Positions 1,577 through 10,595 of a DNA stretch of 24,000 nt are shown piece by piece. This DNA comes from Cyanobium gracile UHCC 0139. Its GTDB lineage: Bacteria > Cyanobacteriota > Cyanobacteriia > PCC-6307 > Cyanobiaceae. The notes under the pieces were generated by a model. The model had not been told where the DNA came from, did not search any database, and saw only the letters and a list, made by a program, of their open reading frames with translations. The DNA lies in assembly GCF_034931325.1 (NCBI RefSeq), contig NZ_JAYGHX010000012.1, forward strand, positions 49,061 to 73,060, in the 5' to 3' direction. Each line of letters opens with the position of its first letter. The first letter of the stretch is position 1. Position numbers and translations under genes: made by a program.

Positions 1577-2947
1577 TCAGATCAGCCGCGAGCCGGAGGC
1601 CGCCTGGCGCTGGGAGGGATCGAACACCGCCGCCACGGTGCGGATCAGCCAGCGGCCCGATGCGGTCACCTCCACCAGGCCCTGGCCACCGGCCTGGCTG
1701 AGCCGCACCAGGCCGTCTTCGGCCAGGTCCTCGAGGGCGGCCCACTCGGCGGCATAACGCTCCGGATTGATCACCACCCGGAACTGGCACATCACCTCCC
1801 GGATCAGCTCCCGCCGCTCCAGCACCTCCGGATCGCTGACCACCAGCCCCCGCTCCACCGGCAGCTGGCCGGCGGCGAGGCTGGCGGCGTAGGCCTTGAG
1901 ATCCCGCTGGTTCTGGCTGAACAGGCCGGGGAACTGGCTGATCGCCGTGGGGCCCACCCCAAGCAGCTCCAGTTCCCCGCCGGTGGTGTATCCCTGAAAA
2001 TTGCGGTGCAGGCGCCCCTCCCTGGCCGCCACGGCCAGGCTGTCGCCGGAGAGGGCGTAGTGATCCATGCCGATGGCGTCGTAGCCGCACCCGCCCAGGC
2101 GGGCGGCGGCACTGTCGAGCATCTGCAGCCGCTGAAGTTGGCTGGGCAGATCCGTCGCCGCGATCTTGCGCTGCAGGGGCAGTTGCTCGGGCAGGTAAGC
2201 GAAGGAGAACAGGGACACCCGATCGGGGCGCAGGTCCTGCACCAGGGCCAGGGTGGCGTCGAACCGCTCCGGGGTCTGGAGCGGCAGACCGCAGATCAGA
2301 TCCACGTTGACGCTGGCGAAGCCCGCCTCCCGCATCCAGGCCATGGCCCGGCGCAGCTGGTCGACCGGCACCACCCGGTTCACCGCCTGCTGCACCAGGG
2401 GGTCGGCATCCTGGATGCCGAAGCTGATCCGGGAGAAGCCCAGGCGGCGCAGCTCCATCACATCCTGGCGGCTGAGGGCTTCCGGATTCACCTCGATCGA
2501 GGCCTCCAGATCGCTCGCCAGATCGAAGTGGCGCTCGATCAGACCCCAGAGGCGCTCGCGCTCGGGGATCGTCAGATAGTTGGGGGTGCCCCCGCCCCAG
2601 TGCAGCTGGGCGAGGCGACGCCGCTGGGCGGAGAGGCGGGTGATCAGCTCCAGCTCCGCGGAGAGGGCCTCCAGGTAGGGCTCCACCACCTTCGAGCCGG
2701 CGCCGGTGGTGATGCGGTTGCAGCCGCAGAACCAGCAGGCGTTGCGACAGAAGGGCACATGCACGTACAACGACAGCGGCGCGTCGGTGGGGCGGGCCAG
2801 CTGGGCCTCCAGATCGGCCGAGCTGACGCCCCCGTGGAACGCCGCGGCCGTGGGGTAGCTCGTGTAGCGGGGGACGGGCCGGTCGTGCTTGAGCAGCAGA
2901 TCGATCGGGGTGCTGGGGCGAGGAGCAATGGTGGCCGCAGGTGTCAT
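1577..2947 (-). CDS. hemN: Oxygen-independent coproporphyrinogen III oxidase (radical SAM, HemN)
   Basis: 456 aa. N-terminal PRYTSYPTA motif, radical-SAM cluster motif CRNACWFCGC (CxxxCxxC), and HWGGGTPNYL are present. Confidence 0.93.
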   Translation of the reverse strand: MTPAATIAPRPSTPIDLLLKHDRPVPRYTSYPTAAAFHGGVSSADLEAQLARPTDAPLSLYVHVPFCRNACWFCGCNRITTGAGSKVVEPYLEALSAELELITRLSAQRRRLAQLHWGGGTPNYLTIPERERLWGLIERHFDLASDLEASIEVNPEALSRQDVMELRRLGFSRISFGIQDADPLVQQAVNRVVPVDQLRRAMAWMREAGFASVNVDLICGLPLQTPERFDATLALVQDLRPDRVSLFSFAYLPEQLPLQRKIAATDLPSQLQRLQMLDSAAARLGGCGYDAIGMDHYALSGDSLAVAAREGRLHRNFQGYTTGGELELLGVGPTAISQFPGLFSQNQRDLKAYAASLAAGQLPVERGLVVSDPEVLERRELIREVMCQFRVVINPERYAAEWAALEDLAEDGLVRLSQAGGQGLVEVTASGRWLIRTVAAVFDPSQRQAASGSRLI

Positions 2948-2996
2948 GGGGAGGGGGGTTGGGGGCTGAAGGGGCCGATGGGATGGGGAGAGGTGG

Positions 2997-3686
2997 TCAG
3001 GCGGCGAGGGTCCCCAGCTCCGCCAGCAACCGCTGGGTGTCCTGGAAGGCGATCACCGATTCCTCCAGCAGCTCCAGCTCCTCGTCTTCGCTGAGGTCCA
3101 TCCGTTCGATGGCGTCATGGAGCTCCTGCTTCAGCTCGGGGATGGGGCGCTGGAACTCCCAGAACTGCACGGGCGGCAGGCCCTGGCTGGCGAGGATGGC
3201 CTTGGCCTGCTCGGCCAGTTGCTGGCCCCCGGAGAGATCGCCGCCGTAGCGCACGTAGACGTGGGCCATGAACCGGTGCGGGGCCTGCTGGGCCAGGCGC
3301 TGCAGATGCTCCAACCAGATCGCGGCCGCCGCGGAAGCGGGCGTGGCCGGGACAACGGCCAGCCTGGCGATGTCCTGGTCGAGGGCCTGGCTGCGGGCCA
3401 GGTCGGCCCAGGGGAAACCCTCGGCTCCCAGGGCGGCGGCGAGCAGGGGACCCCGGGCCTCGATCAGGGCGTAGGCGGGGGCAAGGGCACGGATCAGGGC
3501 CGCCAGCTGGAGGGGTTGGGCCTGCCCCGCCAGCAGCGACCGTGAAAAGGCCATGCCCTCGGCCTGGTGGTGGGCAGCACCGATGCGGCCATGGAGCCGA
3601 CGCACCCGGGGGCCGAACCCCTTGCGGGCGAGGACATCGGCGGGCCTGGCGTGGTCGGAGATGGCGGCAGGGATGGCGGTGGTCAT
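2997..3686 (-). CDS. ho: Heme oxygenase
   Basis: 229 aa. Proximal-His region LHGRIGAAHHQAEGMAF and the HO signature HVYVRYGGDLSGGQ (canonical YTRYLGDLSGGQ) are present. It lies 49 nt upstream of hemN on the same strand, so a ho-hemN operon is likely. Confidence 0.85.
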   Translation of the reverse strand: MTTAIPAAISDHARPADVLARKGFGPRVRRLHGRIGAAHHQAEGMAFSRSLLAGQAQPLQLAALIRALAPAYALIEARGPLLAAALGAEGFPWADLARSQALDQDIARLAVVPATPASAAAAIWLEHLQRLAQQAPHRFMAHVYVRYGGDLSGGQQLAEQAKAILASQGLPPVQFWEFQRPIPELKQELHDAIERMDLSEDEELELLEESVIAFQDTQRLLAELGTLAA

Positions 3687-3733
3687 GGGGGACGGAACCG
3701 AAGGAGAACGGGCCCGGAGGGGCGCTGATGCCT

Positions 3734-3787
3734 ACGGTATAACGGTACTGTTGTTCCATGCTTCTGTGGCAACAAATTCGTTGCATC
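3734..3787. promoter_or_regulatory. AT-rich divergent promoter/operator region between ho (-) and the ycf54-like gene (+)
   Basis: Sequence: ACGGTAtaACGGTActgTTGTTccATGCttcTGTGGcAACAAATTCgtTGCATC. It contains a tandem ACGGTA repeat, a TTGTT..AACAA dyad and ATGC-N21-GCAT. The words ATAACG, TGTGG, ATTC and TGCATC recur in the same order at 7341-7404. Confidence 0.3.
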
Positions 3788-3834
3788 CGCCGCCTTCGCT
3801 CCCCGCCCCCGTCCCCTCCACGCCCCCCTCCGCC

Positions 3835-4260
3835 ATGTCCACCACCACCCAGAACCCGACCACCGCGCCCCTGCGCTCCCTCTCCTTTCTGGTGGCCCCC
3901 CTGGGCCAGCTCAGCGGGGACGGCCAGCTGCGGGAACTGATCGAGGAACGCCGCCAGCGCAAGGGCGCGGACGTGGAGCTCTGGTATCTGGGACCGGAGC
4001 TGGTGGAGGAGCTGCGCCTGGCCCAGGCCTTCCGCAATCCCCCTGCGAAAGACCAGGACCAGGCACGTCCACAGGAGACCATCGAAGCGATCGTGGCTGG
4101 GGACGCAGCGGTGATCACCTGGCTGGAGCTGCGCTTCGGCGGTTGCACCGGCAGCCTGGCCCTGCAGGCTGGCTGGCTGCAGGAGCGTGCCGGGGCGCTG
4201 CCGCCCCGGACCCCGGTCGCCGACACCGCCACCAGCACCGCCCGCTGCGCCCACACCTAG
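3835..4260 (+). CDS. Ycf54-like (DUF2488-type) protein, divergent paralog; putative partner of the AcsF cyclase
   Basis: ATG at 3835 inside the 3553-4260 ORF; 141 aa with high GC3. The pattern FLVAP..L....LRELIEERRQR.G.DVELWYLGPELV ... EAIVAGDAAVITWLELRF parallels Ycf54 as I recall it (ALASQKFLLEEEP..E.L.ERRR.Y.....IDFW...P.F ... AIVST...I.W.KLRLEY). Confidence 0.6.
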   Translation: MSTTTQNPTTAPLRSLSFLVAPLGQLSGDGQLRELIEERRQRKGADVELWYLGPELVEELRLAQAFRNPPAKDQDQARPQETIEAIVAGDAAVITWLELRFGGCTGSLALQAGWLQERAGALPPRTPVADTATSTARCAHT

Positions 4261-4265
4261 GGATT

Positions 4266-4314
4266 CCGGAGCCGGTGGCCTCCGGCTGCTGGCCGCGGGG
4301 AACACCCCCTGCGG
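4266..4314 (+). terminator. Two consecutive GC-rich hairpins downstream of the ycf54-like gene (possible terminator/attenuator, no U-tract)
   Basis: Hairpin 1: CCGGAG (4266-4271) pairs with CTCCGG (4280-4285). Hairpin 2: CCGCGGGG (4293-4300), loop AACA, then CCCC-ct-GCGG (4305-4314). Confidence 0.25.
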
Positions 4315-4458
4315 TGGTCCCGGGGCCGTGACAGCGACGCCCAGCGGTGTTTGTGTTGGGCTGACGGCCCGATCCCCCGGGCGGAGGCGCAGTGAAACCG
4401 ACCCCAACGAACCCACCGGCAATGACCCTTTCGAGCCATCCCCTGGCTCCTGCCGCCG

Positions 4459-5499
4459 GTGCCTGATCTCACCCCGGCCGTCGGCGGCACCTCCGCCGCC
4501 CCCTTCTGCAACCTGCTGCTGCCCACCGGCGCCCAGGCGCGGGGGCGCACCCTTCCCGGCCGCAAGGTCGTGATCGTGGGCTGCGGCGCCGTGGGCATGG
4601 CCTGCGCCGTCTCGATCCTGCATCGGGGCTGCCAGGAGGAGCTGGTGCTGGTGGATGTGGCCCACGACCGGCTGGAGGGGGAGGTGATGGACCTCTGCCA
4701 TGGCCTGCCCTTCCTGCCCCGCACCGACCTGCGGGCCGGGAGCGTGGAGGAGGAGGGACGGGATGCGGATCTGGTGGTGATCACCGCCGGTGTGGCCCAG
4801 CGGCCGGGCCAGTCACGGCGGGAACTGATCGAGCGCAATGCGGACCTGTTCCGCAGGCTCGTGCCGCCGATCGCCCTCCACTGCCCCCGGGCGGTGTTGC
4901 TGGTGGTGAGCAACCCGGTGGATGTGCTCACCCACATCGCCGGCCAGCTGAGCGGCTTCCCCGCCCACCGGGTGATCGGCTCGGGCACCGTGCTCGATTC
5001 GGCCCGCTTCCGCATGGCCATCAGTCGCCGGCTGGGGATCGATCCCCACGACGTCCAGGCCTGGGTGATCGGCGAACACGGTGATTCCGAGGTGCCGGTC
5101 TGGAGCCGGGTGGTGGTGGCTGGCTCCGGGCTCGTGGATGGCGGCTGGGAAGGCAGCCGCACCCTGGCGGATCCGGAGCTTCAGGAGCTGTTCCATGACG
5201 AGGTGCGCCAGGCGGCCTATGAGATCATCCGGCTCAAGGGCAGCACCTCCTGGGCGATCGGGCTGGCCACCGCCGAGATCGTCGAGGCGGTGCTGCGCAG
5301 CAAGGACCAGATGCTCACGGTGAGCAGCCGCAGCCACGGCCACTACGGCCTGCCCGATGTCTGCCTGAGCCTGCCCACGATCGTCAACGACAGCGGCGCC
5401 GCCGCCCTGGTGCAGATGGCCCTGACGGAGAAGGAAATGGGCCAACTGCGCCAGAGCGCCGAACTGCTGCGGGGCATGCTCGATGAGGCTGGGTTCTGA
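4459..5499 (+). CDS. ldh: L-lactate dehydrogenase (LDH/MDH superfamily, Gln at the substrate-specificity position)
   Basis: Motifs: KVVIVGCGAVG Rossmann fold, ITAGVAQRPGQSRRELIERN (Gln rather than the Arg of LDH-like MDHs), VSNPVD, GSGTVLDSARFR, VIGEHGDSEVPVWS. The track start is a GTG. About 32 residues precede the Rossmann motif, so the true start is uncertain. Confidence 0.8.
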   Translation: MPDLTPAVGGTSAAPFCNLLLPTGAQARGRTLPGRKVVIVGCGAVGMACAVSILHRGCQEELVLVDVAHDRLEGEVMDLCHGLPFLPRTDLRAGSVEEEGRDADLVVITAGVAQRPGQSRRELIERNADLFRRLVPPIALHCPRAVLLVVSNPVDVLTHIAGQLSGFPAHRVIGSGTVLDSARFRMAISRRLGIDPHDVQAWVIGEHGDSEVPVWSRVVVAGSGLVDGGWEGSRTLADPELQELFHDEVRQAAYEIIRLKGSTSWAIGLATAEIVEAVLRSKDQMLTVSSRSHGHYGLPDVCLSLPTIVNDSGAAALVQMALTEKEMGQLRQSAELLRGMLDEAGF

Positions 5500-5500
5500 C

Positions 5501-6187
5501 CTAGGCCGCCTGCGCCGCCCTGCCGGCCAGTCGCGCCACCAGCCCCCGGGCCTGGCGCGGCTCGAAGCCCACCGTCTCGATCGCCGCCTGGAAGCAGGCC
5601 ACGAATTCGCCGACCACGTCGGTGGGATCGATGCCGATCGCCGTCAGGTCGTCGCGGACGCTCTGGAGCATGGCCAGCACGATCGGCAGGGCGCGCTCGC
5701 AGCAGGCCGCGATTGGTGCGGCCACCTCCGGGAACCAGGCCGCCAGCCAGCGTCCGCCGTACTCGAGGTGTTCCGCCTCATCGGTGAGCACCGCCTGGAT
5801 GATCGGCGCGGCGAAGGGGTCGGCCACCGGCTGGTAGCAGCGGTAGGCGGCCACGGCGAAGCTCTCCACGATCAGGCACTGGATCACCAGGGCGCTGACG
5901 CGGTCGCCGCTGCGCACGGCCTCGCGGAACAGCCGGTGCAGGGGTGCGAACAGGCGGCGTGCCAGCGGCAGATCCGGGCGGATCCCCAGCTGCCTGCCGC
6001 AGCCGGAGAAGTCGCGGGCGTGGTGCCCCTCCATGGCGGCGAGGCGCATCAGGTCGTCGCGGTCCTCCGGCAGGAGGCCGGCCAGCAGGCGGAAGTGGCT
6101 GTCCGCCAGGCCTTCACCCACGATCACCAGGGCGTTGATGCGGCTGTAGGCATCGCGGTAGGCGGGGGTCATCAATGGCTGGGGCAT
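5501..6187 (-). CDS. Aldehyde-deformylating-oxygenase (ADO) family ferritin-like di-iron protein, non-canonical paralog
   Basis: 228 aa, ATG start. YRDAYSRINALVIVGEGLA, AAMEGHH, LVIQCLIVESFAVAAY, PVADPFA and TDEAEHLEYG align with the ADO family. The E / ExxH / E / ExxH di-iron ligands are retained. It lies 76 nt downstream of acsF on the same strand. Confidence 0.75.
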   Translation of the reverse strand: MPQPLMTPAYRDAYSRINALVIVGEGLADSHFRLLAGLLPEDRDDLMRLAAMEGHHARDFSGCGRQLGIRPDLPLARRLFAPLHRLFREAVRSGDRVSALVIQCLIVESFAVAAYRCYQPVADPFAAPIIQAVLTDEAEHLEYGGRWLAAWFPEVAAPIAACCERALPIVLAMLQSVRDDLTAIGIDPTDVVGEFVACFQAAIETVGFEPRQARGLVARLAGRAAQAA

Positions 6188-6263
6188 GGGGAAGGACGCA
6201 AGGGAACAGAAGCTGAGCCATCCGATGGGACGGCCTGCCGGACAAACCGCTGGAGGGCCGGGC

Positions 6264-7316
6264 TCAGCCCGCCTCCGCCCGCACCATCGGCTGCCAGAAC
6301 TGCTGCCACAGCAGCCCGCCGAAGCGCAGCCTCAGGCCGATCTGGCGCAGGGGGCCGTCCCCCTGGCGGCGGGCGACGCCCATCTCCTGGAAGCAGGCGA
6401 CGAGGCGATCCCGCAGGGCGATGTAGCCGCCGGACTCCAGATCGAACACCCAGGGGAAGGCCCGGCGGGCCGTGCGGTTGGTCTGACGCATCACCTCGGC
6501 ATCGAAGGCCTCCGGATCCATCCCCAGGATCCGGTAGAACTCGCCGCGCTCACAGACCGTGAGGCTGTGGGTGAGAAACACCGACCACAGGAAGAAGCGA
6601 CTCAGCAGCTTGCCGCGCAGGCCCTGGCGCAGGGCCGGCCAGCAGCGGATCAGCATGTTGAAGATGTCGCCATGGCGGTTTTCGTCCTGGCACCAGGGCT
6701 CGAAGAAATCGAACAGCGGTGCGAAGTTGCTGTCGGGGTGGGCCTTGAGGTGGCGGTCGATGAGGATGTATCGCCAGTAGCCGATCTTCTCCGACAGGAA
6801 GACGCTGTAGAGCACCCAGCTCAGGGGGAACCAGGTGATCGGCCGCTTGGTGCTGAGGCTGGGCAGATCGATCTCGATGCCCTCGGCCACCAGCGCCCGG
6901 TTGAGGAAGCCGGCATGGCGGGCCTCATCGCGGGCCATCAGCTGGAACAGCCGCCCCATCTCGGGACGCTGCGCCTGGAACAGCCGCCGGGAGAGCTCCT
7001 TGAACAGCAGAAAGCCGGAGAACTCCGACACGCAGGAGCGCACCAGATAGCTCTCGTAGGCCTCCTTCTCCTCGGGGCTCAGGTCCCGGAGCCGGTCCAG
7101 CTGTGCCTTGCGATCGAAGTGGTCGCGGTTGTAGTCCGCCTCCATCTCGGCGAGCATCGCGTCGAAGGCCGGCCGCTGCGGCTCCAGATCCGTGCGGGCC
7201 GCCTTGGCGATCTGGGTCGTGTAGAACCGCGGCGTCAGCAGGTCTTCCCGCAGGTGGGGGGCCGCCGGGGCGGCCACAGATGAGCCCGCAGCAGGGGAGG
7301 AGAGGGTGGCGGTCAT
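6264..7316 (-). CDS. acsF: Mg-protoporphyrin IX monomethyl ester oxidative cyclase (AcsF / ChlA / CycI)
   Basis: Start taken at the internal ATG 7316 (MTATLSS...), giving 350 aa. Motifs: LLTPRFYTT, SCVSEFSGFLLFKEL, ARDEARHAGFLN, CQDENRHGD (di-iron ExxH motifs). Confidence 0.92.
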   Translation of the reverse strand: MTATLSSPAAGSSVAAPAAPHLREDLLTPRFYTTQIAKAARTDLEPQRPAFDAMLAEMEADYNRDHFDRKAQLDRLRDLSPEEKEAYESYLVRSCVSEFSGFLLFKELSRRLFQAQRPEMGRLFQLMARDEARHAGFLNRALVAEGIEIDLPSLSTKRPITWFPLSWVLYSVFLSEKIGYWRYILIDRHLKAHPDSNFAPLFDFFEPWCQDENRHGDIFNMLIRCWPALRQGLRGKLLSRFFLWSVFLTHSLTVCERGEFYRILGMDPEAFDAEVMRQTNRTARRAFPWVFDLESGGYIALRDRLVACFQEMGVARRQGDGPLRQIGLRLRFGGLLWQQFWQPMVRAEAG

Positions 7317-7373
7317 CGGGAGGCGACGCTGTCTCACGTCATAACGACATCGTGATACTACGTGATCCGCCCT

Positions 7374-7403
7374 ATGCAGACTTGTGGTTTCACGATTCTG
7401 CAT
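7374..7403. promoter_or_regulatory. Candidate operator: perfect 7-bp inverted repeat ATGCAGA-N16-TCTGCAT in the acsF/arsR divergent region
   Basis: ATGCAGA at 7374-7380 and TCTGCAT at 7397-7403 are exact reverse complements. They lie in an AT-rich island, 58 nt upstream of the acsF ATG and 59 nt upstream of the arsR ATG. A tandem CGTGAT repeat (7351-7356 and 7361-7366) sits next to it. Confidence 0.4.
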
Positions 7404-7461
7404 CAACAATCTGAGACGCAAGCGTGGTAGTCTGCCCCAGTCCTGGGTCCCGCTGCGGTCG

Positions 7462-7767
7462 ATGGAATCTCTGGCCGACTACTTCAAGGTGTTCTCCGAA
7501 CCCAACCGGCTCACGGTGCTGGAGACCCTGCGCCCGGGCCCCCTGAACGTCACGGCCGTCGTCGAGAAGACCGGCCTCAGCCAGGCCCTGGTGTCCAAGC
7601 ATCTCAAGCTGCTCACCATCGCCGGGGTGGTGCGTCGCCGTCCCGAAGGCAGCCTGGTGTTCTATGAAGTGATTGACAAGGGTGTCTTCCAGCTCCTGGC
7701 CCAGGCCCGGAAGCTGATGCTCGCCTCCCGCCGCCAGCAACTCGATGCCCTTGCGGCCATCCTCTGA
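7462..7767 (+). CDS. ArsR/SmtB-family winged-helix transcriptional regulator (no Cys, one His)
   Basis: Start taken at ATG 7462 (MESLADYFKVFSEPNRLTVLETL...), giving 101 aa. It has the typical ArsR HTH_5/20 pattern (FxxLxxxxRLxIL..L, then LSQALVSKHLKLLTIAGVV). Confidence 0.85.
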   Translation: MESLADYFKVFSEPNRLTVLETLRPGPLNVTAVVEKTGLSQALVSKHLKLLTIAGVVRRRPEGSLVFYEVIDKGVFQLLAQARKLMLASRRQQLDALAAIL

Positions 7768-8413
7768 GCTCCCCGCCGATCTCCCCGTCGACCTGGACGC
7801 CCTCAAACGCGCCCTGGCCAAGGGGCGCCGTCACTTCGCCGGCCTGCGGCTGGGGGACCTTGATGGTGTGGCGCTCGATCTCGGCGACTGCGACCTGCAC
7901 GGCGGCTGCTTCAAGGAAGGCCGCTTCGGCCACGCCCGACTGGCGGGGGCGAACGTGGAGGCGGCCTGCTTCCAGCAGGCGCTGCTCTGGGGGGCCGACC
8001 TCTCCGATCTCAAGGCCGGCGGCTCCTTCTGGCACGACGCCGATCTGTCGTCGGCCCGGCTGCAGGGGGCCGATTTCAGCGCCGCCCTGATGCACCGCTG
8101 CTGCCTGCGGGGGGTGCTCGGGGCCCACAGCCGCTGGCGGTCCACCCGGCTGGTGGAAGCCGACTTCCGCGGCGGACTCGATCAGCGCACCGATCTGGGC
8201 TGGGCCGATTTCCAGGGGGCCGATCTCAGCTTCGCCCAGATGCAGGGGGCCCTGCTGCAGGGGAGTGATCTGCGCGGTGCCTGCCTCTACGGCACCAACA
8301 TGGGAGGGGCCGACCTGAGGGACGCCGATCTGCGCGGCTGCGATCTGCGGGACACCGATCTCCGGGACGCCATGCTGGAAGGCACCCTGCTCCACGACGC
8401 CCTGCTGCCATGA
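7745..8413 (+). CDS. Pentapeptide-repeat protein
   Basis: 222 aa of A(D/N)LxX-type pentapeptide repeats (GADLSDLKA, ADLSSARLQGADFSAA, GADLSFAQMQGALLQGSDLRGACLYGTNMGGADLRDADLRGCDLRDTDLRDA). The ATG overlaps the arsR 3' end by 23 nt. The stop overlaps the gor ATG (ATGA). Confidence 0.85.
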   Translation: MPLRPSSELPADLPVDLDALKRALAKGRRHFAGLRLGDLDGVALDLGDCDLHGGCFKEGRFGHARLAGANVEAACFQQALLWGADLSDLKAGGSFWHDADLSSARLQGADFSAALMHRCCLRGVLGAHSRWRSTRLVEADFRGGLDQRTDLGWADFQGADLSFAQMQGALLQGSDLRGACLYGTNMGGADLRDADLRGCDLRDTDLRDAMLEGTLLHDALLP

Positions 8414-9768
8414 CCGACTGCTTCGATCTGATCGTCCTCGGGGCGGGCTCCGGTGGCCTGGCCGCTGCCAAACGGGCGGCCTCCTACGGGGCCTCCGTGG
8501 CGATCGTGGAGGGCGACCGGGTGGGGGGGACCTGCGTGATCCGCGGCTGCGTACCCAAGAAGCTGCTGGTCTACGGCTCGGCCTACCGCCACGTGCTCGC
8601 CGATGCCGCCAGCTACGGCTGGCAGCTGGATGGCTTCCGACCGGACGCTTCGGTGCTGCTCGCCAACGTGCGCCGGGAGGTGGACCGACTCAATCAGCTG
8701 CACATCACCCTGCTGGAGAAGGCAGGCGTCGAGCTGGTGCGCGGCTGGGGCCGGTTCGCCGATCCCCACCACATCGAGGTGATCCAGGACGGCGAGACCA
8801 ACCGACGCCTCAAGGGCGAACGGATCCTGATCGCCGCCGGCGGCCGGCCGCACCGGCCCACCATCCCCGGGGCTGAGCTGGGCTGGGTCAGCGACGACAT
8901 GTTCCTGCAGGAAAGCTTCCCGGACCGGGTCGTGGTGGTGGGGGCGGGCTTCATCGCCTGCGAATTCGCCTGCATCCTGCACGGCCTTGGGGTGGCGGTG
9001 ACCCTGTTGGTGCGGGGCGACCACCTGCTGCGGGGCTTCGACCGGGAAGCCTCCCATGCGGTGCAGGAGGCCATGGAGGCCGAAGGCATCGAGATCCGCT
9101 TCACCCACAGCCCCGCCGCCATCACGGGCGTGCCCGGCGCCCTGGAGCTGGTCACCCAGAGCGGCGAGGTGCTGGCCTGCGGCGGCGTGCTGCTGGCCAC
9201 GGGCCGCAGGCCCTTCCTTGAGGGGCTGCAGCTGGAATGCGCCGGGGTGGCGGTGGAAGGCCACCGCATCCCGGTGGATGCCGACCAGACCACCAACGTG
9301 CCCCACATCCATGCGGTCGGCGATGTGACCGACCGCATCAACCTCACCCCGGTGGCGGTGGACGAAGGCCGGGCCTTCGCCGACACCGTCTACGGCAACA
9401 AGCCCCGCCAGGTCAACCATGACCTGGTGGCCAGCGCCGTGTTCAGCCAGCCGGAACTGGCTGGGGTGGGGCTGAGCGAGGAGGCGGCGATCGAGCGCTT
9501 CGGTGCCGAGGGCATCCGGGTGCACCGGGCCCGCTTCCGGCCCATGGCCCAGGCCCTGCCGGCCCGGGGGCCCCGGGTGCTGCTGAAGCTGATCGTGGAG
9601 AGCGCCACCGACAAAGTGGTGGGCTGCCACATGGTGGGCGAGCACAGCGCCGAGATCATTCAGATGGCGGCGATCGCCATCGGCATGGGCGCCACCAAGG
9701 CCGACTTCGACCGCACCATGGCCCTGCACCCCTCGGTGGCCGAGGAGTTCGTCACCATGGCCGGCTGA
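8410..9768 (+). CDS. gor: Glutathione-disulfide reductase
   Basis: 452 aa. Motifs: FDLIVLGAGSGG FAD fold, redox-active GGTCVIRGCVPKK, second dinucleotide fold VVVGAGFIACEFA, C-terminal HP(S/T)xxEE dimerisation/active-site motif (ALHPSVAEEF). Confidence 0.9.
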   Translation: MTDCFDLIVLGAGSGGLAAAKRAASYGASVAIVEGDRVGGTCVIRGCVPKKLLVYGSAYRHVLADAASYGWQLDGFRPDASVLLANVRREVDRLNQLHITLLEKAGVELVRGWGRFADPHHIEVIQDGETNRRLKGERILIAAGGRPHRPTIPGAELGWVSDDMFLQESFPDRVVVVGAGFIACEFACILHGLGVAVTLLVRGDHLLRGFDREASHAVQEAMEAEGIEIRFTHSPAAITGVPGALELVTQSGEVLACGGVLLATGRRPFLEGLQLECAGVAVEGHRIPVDADQTTNVPHIHAVGDVTDRINLTPVAVDEGRAFADTVYGNKPRQVNHDLVASAVFSQPELAGVGLSEEAAIERFGAEGIRVHRARFRPMAQALPARGPRVLLKLIVESATDKVVGCHMVGEHSAEIIQMAAIAIGMGATKADFDRTMALHPSVAEEFVTMAG

Positions 9769-9783
9769 ACAGGACCGGGGCGA

Positions 9784-10065
9784 TCAGAGCTCCTCTTCCA
9801 CCCCAGGCCGGATGGTGCAGTCCGCGAGGGGGTAGCTGACGCAGAGCAGGGCGAAGCCTTCGCCGATCTGGTCATCGTCGAGGAAGCTCTGGTCGGACTG
9901 GTCGACGCTGCCGGAGAGGATCTTGCCAGCACAGGTGCTGCAGGCCCCGGCGCGGCAGGAGTAGGGCAGATCAATGCCCTGCTCCTCGGCCGCGTCGAGG
10001 ATGTAGGTGTCGTCGGGGCAGCTGAAGGACTTCCCTCCTTCCAGGCTGATCGTGAAGCTCGCCAT
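9784..10065 (-). CDS. petF: Plant-type [2Fe-2S] ferredoxin
   Basis: 93 aa. The sequence [31 protein letters not shown] ... LLCVSYP carries the CxxxxCxxC...C cluster ligands. Confidence 0.93.
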
Positions 10066-10160: not shown

Positions 10161-10595
10161 TCAGGGTCCGGTGCCGGCCGGGGGGTGGCTGGGGAAGCCC
10201 CAGGCCCGGCGGAGGGCCGGGTCGGAGAGTTCCCAGGCATGTTCACTGGCCACCACGGCGGCCCGCACCCCCTCCCCCGTCAGCCCCCGGGCCGCCCGGG
10301 CGCTCTCCAGCAGCCGGCGGAACCGCAGGCTCTCCTGCAGCAGCCGATCGACCCGTTCGGCCCCCCCGGCGCTGGCGAGCATGGTCGGTTGCCGGGCGCA
10401 GAGTTCGAGGGTCTCGATGTGCTGCTCCAGCCAGGCGGCCTCGTAGTGGAGCATGGCGTCAGTGCAGCCCTCGAGCCGGGCGGCGTAGAGCGTCAGATGC
10501 TCCTCCAGCACGGCAGGGTCCCCGGAGCGGTCGACCGGGGCCGGAGCGGTGGAGCGGTCATGGAGCCGCTGCATGATCTGACGCAGGTAACTCAT
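10161..10595 (-). CDS. Hypothetical protein (predicted all-helical, no recognised domain)
   Basis: 144 aa, ATG start. G/C at the third codon position is very high in this frame and the amino-acid composition is ordinary. The overlapping plus-strand ORFs are G/P/R-rich shadow ORFs. Confidence 0.65.
   Translation of the reverse strand: MSYLRQIMQRLHDRSTAPAPVDRSGDPAVLEEHLTLYAARLEGCTDAMLHYEAAWLEQHIETLELCARQPTMLASAGGAERVDRLLQESLRFRRLLESARAARGLTGEGVRAAVVASEHAWELSDPALRRAWGFPSHPPAGTGP

Follow-up and report, generated by a model that had tools for sequence, protein, structure and literature searches.

An ADO-family paralog in the acsF-linked low-oxygen gene cluster of Cyanobium gracile and related picocyanobacteria

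Aldehyde-deformylating oxygenase (ADO) is, to our knowledge, the only enzyme known for the alkane route in most cyanobacteria, and it is a major target of biofuel engineering, in which its slow, oxygen-dependent and iron-labile catalysis is limiting. Here we analyze a 24-kb stretch of the genome of Cyanobium gracile UHCC 0139 (hereinafter the window, to which all coordinates refer) that encodes a divergent member of this family, an 'ADO2-type' paralog located at 5501..6187 on the minus strand, immediately downstream of acsF, the gene for the Mg-protoporphyrin IX monomethyl ester oxidative cyclase. The encoded protein of 228 aa is translated from an ATG start and begins with MPQPLMTPAYRDAYS. 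We interpret it, with a little more confidence than doubt, as an intact low-oxygen ADO isoenzyme that does not dock to acyl-ACP reductase (AAR) and that is a conserved member of the low-oxygen cluster of picocyanobacteria.

Several pieces of this picture are already in the literature. Canonical ADOs (orf1593 of Synechococcus elongatus and PMT1231 of Prochlorococcus marinus; PDB 4RC5 and 2OC5) are encoded next to aar and accA, and each canonical locus that we examined, including those on contigs with a G+C content of 69% like that of the window, has the gene order creatininase-ADO-AAR-accA. Two ADO homologs each have been reported for C. gracile PCC 6307 and Synechococcus strains CB0101 and RS9917 (Coates 2014), and in the IMG identifiers given in that study for the three strains, one ADO number directly adjoins that of the acyl-ACP reductase (FAAR), whereas the other ADO is hundreds of genes away (999 genes from the aar-adjacent copy in C. 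gracile PCC 6307). A crystal structure has been deposited under the title 'Protein 19 with aldehyde deformylating oxidase activity from Synechococcus' (PDB 5UX2). The ADO of strain RS9917 (ZP_01080370), described as a '40-41% identity outlier', produced heptane, pentane and propane at low levels in Escherichia coli (Patrikainen 2017, PMC5699528), an output that the authors attributed mainly to poor accumulation (PMC5699528).

The second described system is the arsR/acsF2-ho2-hemN2 cluster, which is known in anoxic marine zone (AMZ) Prochlorococcus and in Synechococcus strains RS9917, WH8101 and CB0101, with arsR as the putative regulator (PMC7980375), and to which a role in making pigments when oxygen is limiting has been ascribed. 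Its core of acsF2, ho2 and hemN2 with a divergent regulator is shared by the chlR-acsFII-ho2-hemN-desF cluster of Synechococcus PCC 7002, the chlAII-ho2-hemN cluster of Synechocystis and the cluster in the window; the regulator in the window is of the ArsR type and not a MarR-type ChlR. For the core genes, induction of transcription in micro-oxic cells is known from the literature on Synechocystis and PCC 7002. In PCC 7002, desF provides a low-oxygen version of the delta-9 desaturase and is indispensable for micro-oxic growth (PMC4500134). The PCC 7002 cluster has thereby recruited a low-oxygen isoform of an O2-dependent lipid enzyme, the same logic that we propose for the ADO copy in the window. 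In the searchable literature on acsF2-ho2-hemN2 clusters, we found no mention of an ADO-family, L-lactate dehydrogenase (LDH) or Ycf54-like gene as a cluster member; the one publication in which both hemN2 and ADO came up was a general review of Synechocystis metabolism.

A distinct clade of ADO-like proteins

The Pfam profile PF11266 (Ald_deCOase) covers residues 9-213 of the window protein (profile positions 6-210 of 218) with a score of 206 bits, against a cut-off of 28 bits, which bears out the near end-to-end similarity to ADO proposed in the initial annotation of this DNA. The score with the curated equivalog model TIGR04059 is 209.1 bits, below the cut-off of 222.65 bits; members of the clade described here score 199-238 bits, and the canonical ADO P0183 reaches 410 bits. 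The window protein shares ~40% identity with canonical ADOs. When representatives clustered at 50% identity were searched exhaustively, the clade fell to one representative (P0109) and the canonical ADOs to another (P0260), which has 40% identity to the window protein.

Searching 5.8 billion proteins retrieved 217 relatives of the window protein, and each of the 120 relatives listed (57-92% identical) carries the motifs VGE(G/A/S)(L/M)A, AME(G/A)xH and DExxHL. The canonical PMT1231, whose sequence was confirmed to be identical to PDB 2OC5, has 3,549 relatives at E <= 1e-20, which carry EGEQEA, KMExxH and DEYTHLNYG. Residue conservation was assessed across 121 members of the clade and, for canonical ADOs, across PMT1231 and 120 of its relatives. 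The three altered blocks pointed out initially are real and specific to the clade: EGEQEA is replaced by VGEGLA, K/R-M-E-x-R/K-H by AMEG(R/H)H and DEY(T/L)HLN by DEAEHL(E/D/N). The possibility that these forms are simply the picocyanobacterial norm was considered and rejected because the related loci are all acsF-linked and the canonical ADOs of picocyanobacteria keep EGEQEA, KMExxH and DEYTHLNYG. All six di-iron ligands, defined by two E-x(28-29)-E-x2-H motifs (PMC4286721) and numbered here as in S. elongatus ADO (E32, E60, H63, E115, E144 and H147), are present in the window protein, as first read, and are kept in 99-100% of the 121 clade members.

In a neighbour-joining tree (200 bootstraps, reported as an unrooted split), the ADO-like clade separates from a canonical group that takes in the S. 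elongatus and Synechocystis enzymes; corrected distances average 0.53 inside the clade, 0.32 among the canonical ADOs and 1.16 between the two. When the distant ferritin-like proteins P0311 and P0350 were used as the root, the topology became unstable, with long branches, and the root was dropped. Given the separate clade in the tree and the separate 50% cluster, the window protein is not nested among the orthodox ADOs, a conclusion of moderate support. Taken with the TIGR04059 score and the identity level, this agrees with the proposal that the gene is a distinct ADO paralog.

Scanning one genome per bacterial species yielded 56 loci with relatives 52-96% identical to the window protein, the nearest of the surveyed loci being L004 (96%). 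The closest relatives are Cyanobium-type freshwater picocyanobacteria; no protein identical in sequence to that of the window was on record. The acsF-linked protein of C. gracile PCC 6307 (P0005) has 89% identity to the window protein; its gene maps to ~1.028 Mb of the 3.34-Mb chromosome, a position that fits the distant ADO copy in the table of Coates 2014. The separate canonical ado-aar pair expected in genomes that carry the paralog is recorded in that table for C. gracile PCC 6307, CB0101 and RS9917; among the canonical ADO contigs, cluster members and homologs of a 69%-G+C canonical ADO that we compared, no assembly was in common with the loci of the paralog.

Two previously described proteins appear to belong to the same clade. 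PDB 5UX2 is 57-67% identical to clade members and 42-43% identical to canonical ADOs, which places it in the ADO-like clade by sequence. It represents a marine lineage, ~56-60% identical to the window protein (248 bits and 56% over the structural alignment), and has the same VGEGLA, MEGxH and DExEHL motifs. The RS9917 enzyme is probably a member as well because a canonical marine Synechococcus ADO would be expected to show ~75% identity to the Prochlorococcus enzyme, rather than the 40-41% of the reported outlier. Strain RS9917 resembles the window in setting, with two reported ADO homologs and an acsF2-ho2-hemN2 cluster, and 5UX2, ZP_01080370 and the acsF-linked gene product of RS9917 are probably one protein. 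A literature search for RS9917 locus tags or 5UX2 returned nothing relevant.

The exhaustive search also revealed other full-length ADO-like groups (P0264, P0267, P0269 and P0276) that are 27-35% identical to the window protein; in P0267, the ligand E144 is replaced by Lys. Among them may be the 'second ADO homologs' that have been reported in Cyanothece PCC 7425 and Leptolyngbya PCC 7375. On the opposite strand of the window, a 359-aa open reading frame (ORF) at 5483-6562 (+) spans the entire ADO-like gene; it is one of the long spurious frames that arise opposite real genes at ~70% G+C, and none of the long antisense ORFs of the window that were tested gave a Pfam match.

Apparently conserved chemistry and loss of the AAR-docking residues

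An AlphaFold2 (AF2) model of the window protein, built from 42 sequences, has a predicted local distance difference test score (pLDDT) of 95.8. In comparisons with Foldseek, the top PDB match of the model is 5UX2, with a template modeling (TM) score of 0.93-0.97 and a root-mean-square deviation (rmsd) of 0.6 A, followed by 25 other ADO chains with TM scores of 0.90-0.93 (canonical ADOs, ~0.91 with rmsd of 0.9-1.7 A); the next fold family scores at most 0.6. The protein is thus predicted to adopt the eight-helix ferritin-like fold of ADO. The fatty-aldehyde channel is similarly well preserved. Of the 17 residues that line it in S. elongatus ADO (PMC5007808), 13 are identical in the window protein, and the remaining four changes (I27L, F86L, M193I and L198V) are swaps between hydrophobic residues; G31, A118 and A121, which lie beside the aldehyde head, are invariant. 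Judging from these residues, the chemistry of the clade looks unchanged from that of ADO, and the O2- and ferredoxin-dependent reaction of the canonical enzyme is presumably common to the window protein.

At 18 positions, residues that differ between this clade and the canonical ADOs are fixed at >= 90% within each. Several of these changes flank the iron ligands, namely E30V, Q33G and E34L around E32, and K/R58A and L/M61G around E60 and H63, and the channel change F86L belongs to the same set. At position 30, canonical ADOs have E (100%) and clade members V (98%). Next to the ligand E144, the Tyr found at position 145 in 100% of canonical ADOs gives way to Ala in 69% of the clade, and 71% of the clade have Glu at position 146. 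The segment of helix 5 formed by residues 144-150 has been proposed to unwind and thereby open an O2 path (PMC4286721), and further clade-specific changes fall within residues 145-149 of this helix (H5), where the window protein itself shows Y145A and T146E. It is tempting to surmise that these substitutions tune oxygen reactivity, although they are suggestive only.

The strongest sign of divergence, which the initial annotation missed, is the loss of E196 and E200. In S. elongatus ADO, either E196A or E200A alone abolishes detectable AAR binding (PMC7089970). Position 196 is E in 100% of canonical ADOs but A, V, L or T in the clade (T in the window protein), and position 200, which is E in 96% of canonical ADOs, is G or A in the clade (G in the window protein). 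Residue 201 of the window protein is E, at the site of D201, the third acidic docking residue on helix 7 of canonical ADO. The partner residues R73, R79 and K80 are retained in a picocyanobacterial AAR. With both E196 and E200 replaced, the clade would naturally be devoid of the AAR docking patch, which fits the separation of its genes from aar. Indeed, tblastn with an AAR query verified by TIGR04058 (610 bits) gave no hit either in the window or in any of 59 related loci, in agreement with the earlier statement that no aar lies nearby. Docking is dispensable for catalysis, given that a non-docking triple mutant still yielded half of the product (PMC7089970).

The acsF2-ho2-hemN2 cluster and its neighbourhood

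In the window, acsF occupies 6264..7316 on the minus strand (NF010172, 427 bits; TIGR02029, 353 bits), with a likely ATG start at 7316 and a product of 350 aa, and is of the acsF2 type by synteny. As initially described, the ADO-like gene lies 76 nt downstream on the same strand: with the stop codon of acsF ending at 6264 and the ATG of the ADO-like gene placed at 6187, the spacer spans 6188..6263. This linkage is not unique to the strain. Among the 56 species-representative loci, acsF lies upstream on the same strand in 50 and is adjacent on the other strand in one, and the contig ends within ~1.1 kb upstream in the remaining five; the synteny is kept across the Cyanobium, Vulcanococcus and Synechococcus lineages. 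Half of the 50 acsF-linked loci have spacers of <= 234 nt, and in C. gracile PCC 6307, as in several metagenome contigs, there is a 4-nt overlap between acsF and the ADO-like gene.

In the other 25 acsF-linked loci, the spacer is 0.75-1.8 kb. A DesF-like desaturase gene occupies this interval in 14 loci and a GT8-like glycosyltransferase gene in several; both are absent from the window itself. The desaturase is a membrane protein of ~295 aa (PF00487) with the motifs HRLLAHRSF, HRHHH and HNNHH (L023, L028, L031, L035, L044, L045 and L053). In these distant loci, the desaturase gene is often accompanied by the GT8-like ORF, and the two resemble a lipid sub-module within the low-oxygen cluster, reminiscent of desF in PCC 7002.

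A tetrapyrrole island around the gene, recognized from the outset, is also evident beyond acsF. It includes a heme oxygenase (HO) gene at 2997..3686 on the minus strand (PF01126, 81 bits; present in 43 of the 56 loci) and, at 1577..2947 on the same strand, a gene for a HemN-like radical-SAM protein of the oxygen-independent coproporphyrinogen oxidase type (PF04055, 85 bits; 33 of the 56 loci, many of them truncated at the locus end), which by synteny are of the ho2 and hemN2 types, respectively. Divergently from acsF, an ArsR-family (HTH_5) regulator of 101 aa is encoded at 7462..7767 on the plus strand and recurs in 45 of the 56 loci. The gene content and order identify the genes at 1577-7767 as the published low-oxygen cluster arsR/acsF2...ho2-hemN2. 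The cluster is also published from a Black Sea Cyanobium, in which acsF2, ho2 and hemN2 are CDS 3229, 3233 and 3234 (PMC13588713), and the same number of genes, three, separates acsF2 from ho2 in the window.

Two of these three genes are on the plus strand. The L-lactate dehydrogenase gene at 4459..5499 (TIGR01771, 333 bits) is convergent with the ADO-like gene and occurs at this position in 15 of the 56 loci. A Ycf54-like ORF of 141 aa at 3835..4260 is divergent from ho; its match to PF10674 (E=0.013) is below the cut-off, but 6 of 16 orthologs match Ycf54, and the top five PDB hits of the ortholog profile are five Ycf54 structures (E 0.0015-0.089). This gene is kept in 41 of the 56 loci, divergent from ho where examined, and may encode a partner specific to AcsF2. 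An insert of ~9 kb separates the ADO-like gene from ldh in C. gracile PCC 6307 and its relatives (L001, L003 and L105-L112) and comprises sulfur-related genes (a PALP enzyme, a rhodanese, a hexapeptide transferase, an SrpI-like protein and an aminotransferase) and phycobilisome genes; in the window, which is free of this insert, ldh directly adjoins the ADO-like gene.

A scan of region 2800-7900 for promoter and terminator patterns (sigma-70-type patterns only) returned nothing above chance, and within the 76-nt acsF/ADO-like spacer it detected no promoter-like or terminator-like site. The divergent acsF/arsR control region (7317..7461, 145 nt) contains four TCACGW half-sites (7334-7395) and, on the minus strand at 7336-7346, the 11-mer CGTTATGACGT. 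A second copy of this element (CGTTATRMCGT) is found at 3734..3744 on the minus strand, ~48 nt upstream of the ho start codon. These two copies, the first of which lies ~20 nt before the acsF start, are the only ones in the window, and the element recurs at both positions in related loci; because the pattern was derived after the sites had been seen, a comparison with chance expectation would not be a fair test. The spacer between ho and the ycf54-like gene additionally contains a conserved palindrome, TTGCAACGAAATTGTTGC. The half-sites, the 11-mer and the palindrome are candidate operator or promoter elements, and the 11-mer hints at shared control of acsF and ho. Because the 76-nt spacer shows no terminator-like site, the two genes overlap by 4 nt in relatives and the 11-mer is common to acsF and ho, the ADO-like gene is probably co-transcribed with acsF2.

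In several distant loci (L018, L028, L035, L041, L044, L053 and L057), the arsR-acsF gap extends to ~0.7-0.9 kb and its nucleotide alignment includes coding-like blocks, so that it may hold an extra gene that is absent from the window. Beyond arsR, the conserved flank comprises a pentapeptide-repeat protein gene at 7745-8413 (+; 44 of the 56 loci), a pyridine-nucleotide disulfide oxidoreductase gene at 8410-9768 (+; 28 of the 56 loci), whose start overlaps the stop of the former, and a gene for a plant-type 2Fe-2S ferredoxin at 9784-10065 (-; 22 of the 56 loci). Ferredoxin electrons serve AcsF, HO, desaturases and ADO alike. A 144-aa ORF at 10161-10595 (-) was considered as a possible hemerythrin on the strength of a faint hint (E=0.42) and rejected, as it was backed by neither the Pfam nor the PDB sequence search. 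Some of the metagenome-assembled genomes that carry the cluster bear implausible organism names (Tabrizicola, Bordetella parapertussis, Rhizobium, Sphingobacterium, Chitinophaga and Bifidobacterium breve); given that the cluster is plainly cyanobacterial, these records (L012, L013, L017, L022, L026, L034, L037, L042 and L049) are evidently mislabelled.

A possible low-oxygen isoenzyme and alternative roles

The gathering of AcsF2, HO2, a HemN substitute and a fermentative LDH in one cluster, together with the precedent of DesF, leads us to favour a low-oxygen ADO isoenzyme. Under this scheme, the cluster would be organized with arsR divergent from acsF2-(desF-like)-ado2, followed by the ycf54-like gene, ho2 and hemN2. 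When oxygen is low, ado2 would be transcribed with acsF2 from the arsR-acsF divergent control region, that is, it would probably be induced under micro-oxic conditions. Using its di-iron centre, O2 and ferredoxin electrons, ADO2 would convert long-chain fatty aldehydes to alkanes and formate and would maintain the hydrocarbon supply once the housekeeping ADO becomes oxygen-limited, by the same logic by which AcsF2, HO2 and DesF replace AcsF1, HO1 and DesC. Such an enzyme would be expected to be adapted to scarce oxygen, presumably through a higher oxygen affinity, and to act independently of AAR: without docking of a helix-7 acidic patch to the reductase, it would take free or membrane-dissolved aldehyde.

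Several observations weigh against this interpretation. The bootstrap support for the separation of the ADO-like clade (66%) and of the canonical ADOs (72%) is moderate. The loss of the docking residues could equally mean another source of substrate or another substrate. The coexistence of the paralog with a canonical ado-aar pair is taken from a published table that covers three strains, and the linkage of ZP_01080370 and 5UX2 to acsF in their own genomes is presumed. The poor output of the RS9917 ADO leaves room for what may be a low intrinsic activity on fatty aldehydes. Finally, in dark anoxia, acsF2, ho2 and hemN2 of the Black Sea Cyanobium were up by only 0.1-0.5 log2 units (PMC13588713).

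The initial annotation proposed a neofunctionalised ADO paralog with a role linked to the cyclase, heme turnover or O2 management rather than alkane synthesis. Such a di-iron enzyme would retain the scaffold of ADO while using another aldehyde, or another kind of substrate, connected with tetrapyrrole metabolism, for example in aid of the AcsF2 cyclase or in the turnover of heme or chlorophyll. The conserved site directly downstream of acsF is what would be expected of such an enzyme, as are the score below the TIGR04059 cut-off, the loss of the AAR-docking residues, the systematic second-shell changes near the iron ligands, with F86L of the channel among them, and the weak alkane output of the RS9917 enzyme. 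The channel, however, is long and hydrophobic, with 13 of 17 residues identical, four conservative changes and invariant G31, A118 and A121; 5UX2 is titled with ADO activity, and the RS9917 outlier does make alkanes. The AcsF2 clusters of Synechocystis and PCC 7002 function as units without any ADO, and the picocyanobacterial cluster has its own candidate cyclase partner in the Ycf54-like protein. Moreover, 0.75-1.8 kb split acsF from the ADO-like gene in half of the acsF-linked loci, and the DesF-like or GT8-like genes that intervene suggest that the ADO-like gene is tied more tightly to lipid genes. The proposal of a diverged paralog therefore holds with regard to the distinct clade, and a link to O2 is plausible in view of the low-oxygen cluster, whereas the exclusion of alkane synthesis and the role in the cyclase reaction or heme metabolism fare poorly; overall, a tetrapyrrole-tied function seems unlikely to us.

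An AAR-independent scavenger of free aldehydes, or an oxygen sink, is likewise accorded a low probability. In low-oxygen or fermentative settings, such an enzyme would clear toxic fatty aldehydes, or use up residual O2 and reducing equivalents in the vicinity of oxygen-sensitive enzymes such as HemN, with alkane supply as a lesser benefit. The loss of the interface for channelling from AAR is in line with such a function, and so are the neighbours, namely the oxygen-sensitive radical-SAM HemN-like gene, LDH and the ferredoxin gene, and the consumption of O2 and four electrons in ADO turnover (mechanism in PMC9743570). Against it, the kcat of ADO is below 1 per min (PMC5356278), and an enzyme of such slow turnover would make a poor oxygen sink; furthermore, the chemistry would be the same as in the low-oxygen isoenzyme reading and only the target of selection would differ. 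We see about as little reason to prefer an ADO freed from AAR that has taken on a new micro-oxic job, either acting on aldehydes from another source, for instance products of lipid degradation, or on some other formyl-bearing compound, or else partnering the ferredoxin, the Ycf54-like protein and AcsF2 of the cluster. Should the latter, speculative scenario be correct, membrane hydrocarbon and lipid remodelling would be linked to chlorophyll synthesis at scarce oxygen.

The gene might also be a redundant duplicate that rides along in the cluster with no special oxygen adaptation, as the apparently unchanged chemistry would allow. This is decidedly improbable for an old, constrained clade (52-96% identity) with ligands conserved at 99-100%, 18 positions fixed differently, synteny kept from Cyanobium and Vulcanococcus to Synechococcus, and a consistent loss of E196 and E200 that indicates a changed mode of action. 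Least credible, to the point of being almost negligible, is the notion that the protein is the sole, orthodox ADO of the organism that has merely been parted from aar. The window indeed contains no second ADO, but the identity of ~40% to canonical ADOs and the separate 50% cluster, the canonical ADO-AAR-accA loci on equally GC-rich (69%) Cyanobium-type contigs, and the presence of both genes in C. gracile PCC 6307 (Coates 2014), where the acsF-linked protein shares 89% identity with that of the window, all speak against it.

With second ADO homologs, a crystal structure that groups with the clade and the low-oxygen cluster already published, what appears to be new, as far as the searchable literature shows, is that the clade is a conserved component of the cluster across picocyanobacteria, that its AAR-docking residues are absent and that its substitutions are concentrated at the iron site and the proposed O2-gating helix. 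The clade provides a natural comparison from which the determinants of oxygen reactivity and of partner dependence in ADO could be worked out, one that is made easier by the 5UX2 crystal structure. Counts of alkane producers from metagenomes are affected as well because automated annotation names the two clades inconsistently, with some clade members labelled 'aldehyde oxygenase (deformylating)'. If the low-oxygen isoenzyme reading is correct, the set of picocyanobacterial low-oxygen isoenzymes (AcsF2, HO2, HemN2 and DesF) would be widened to hydrocarbon synthesis, which would have a bearing on the persistence of Cyanobium and Synechococcus in oxygen-minimum and anoxic waters.

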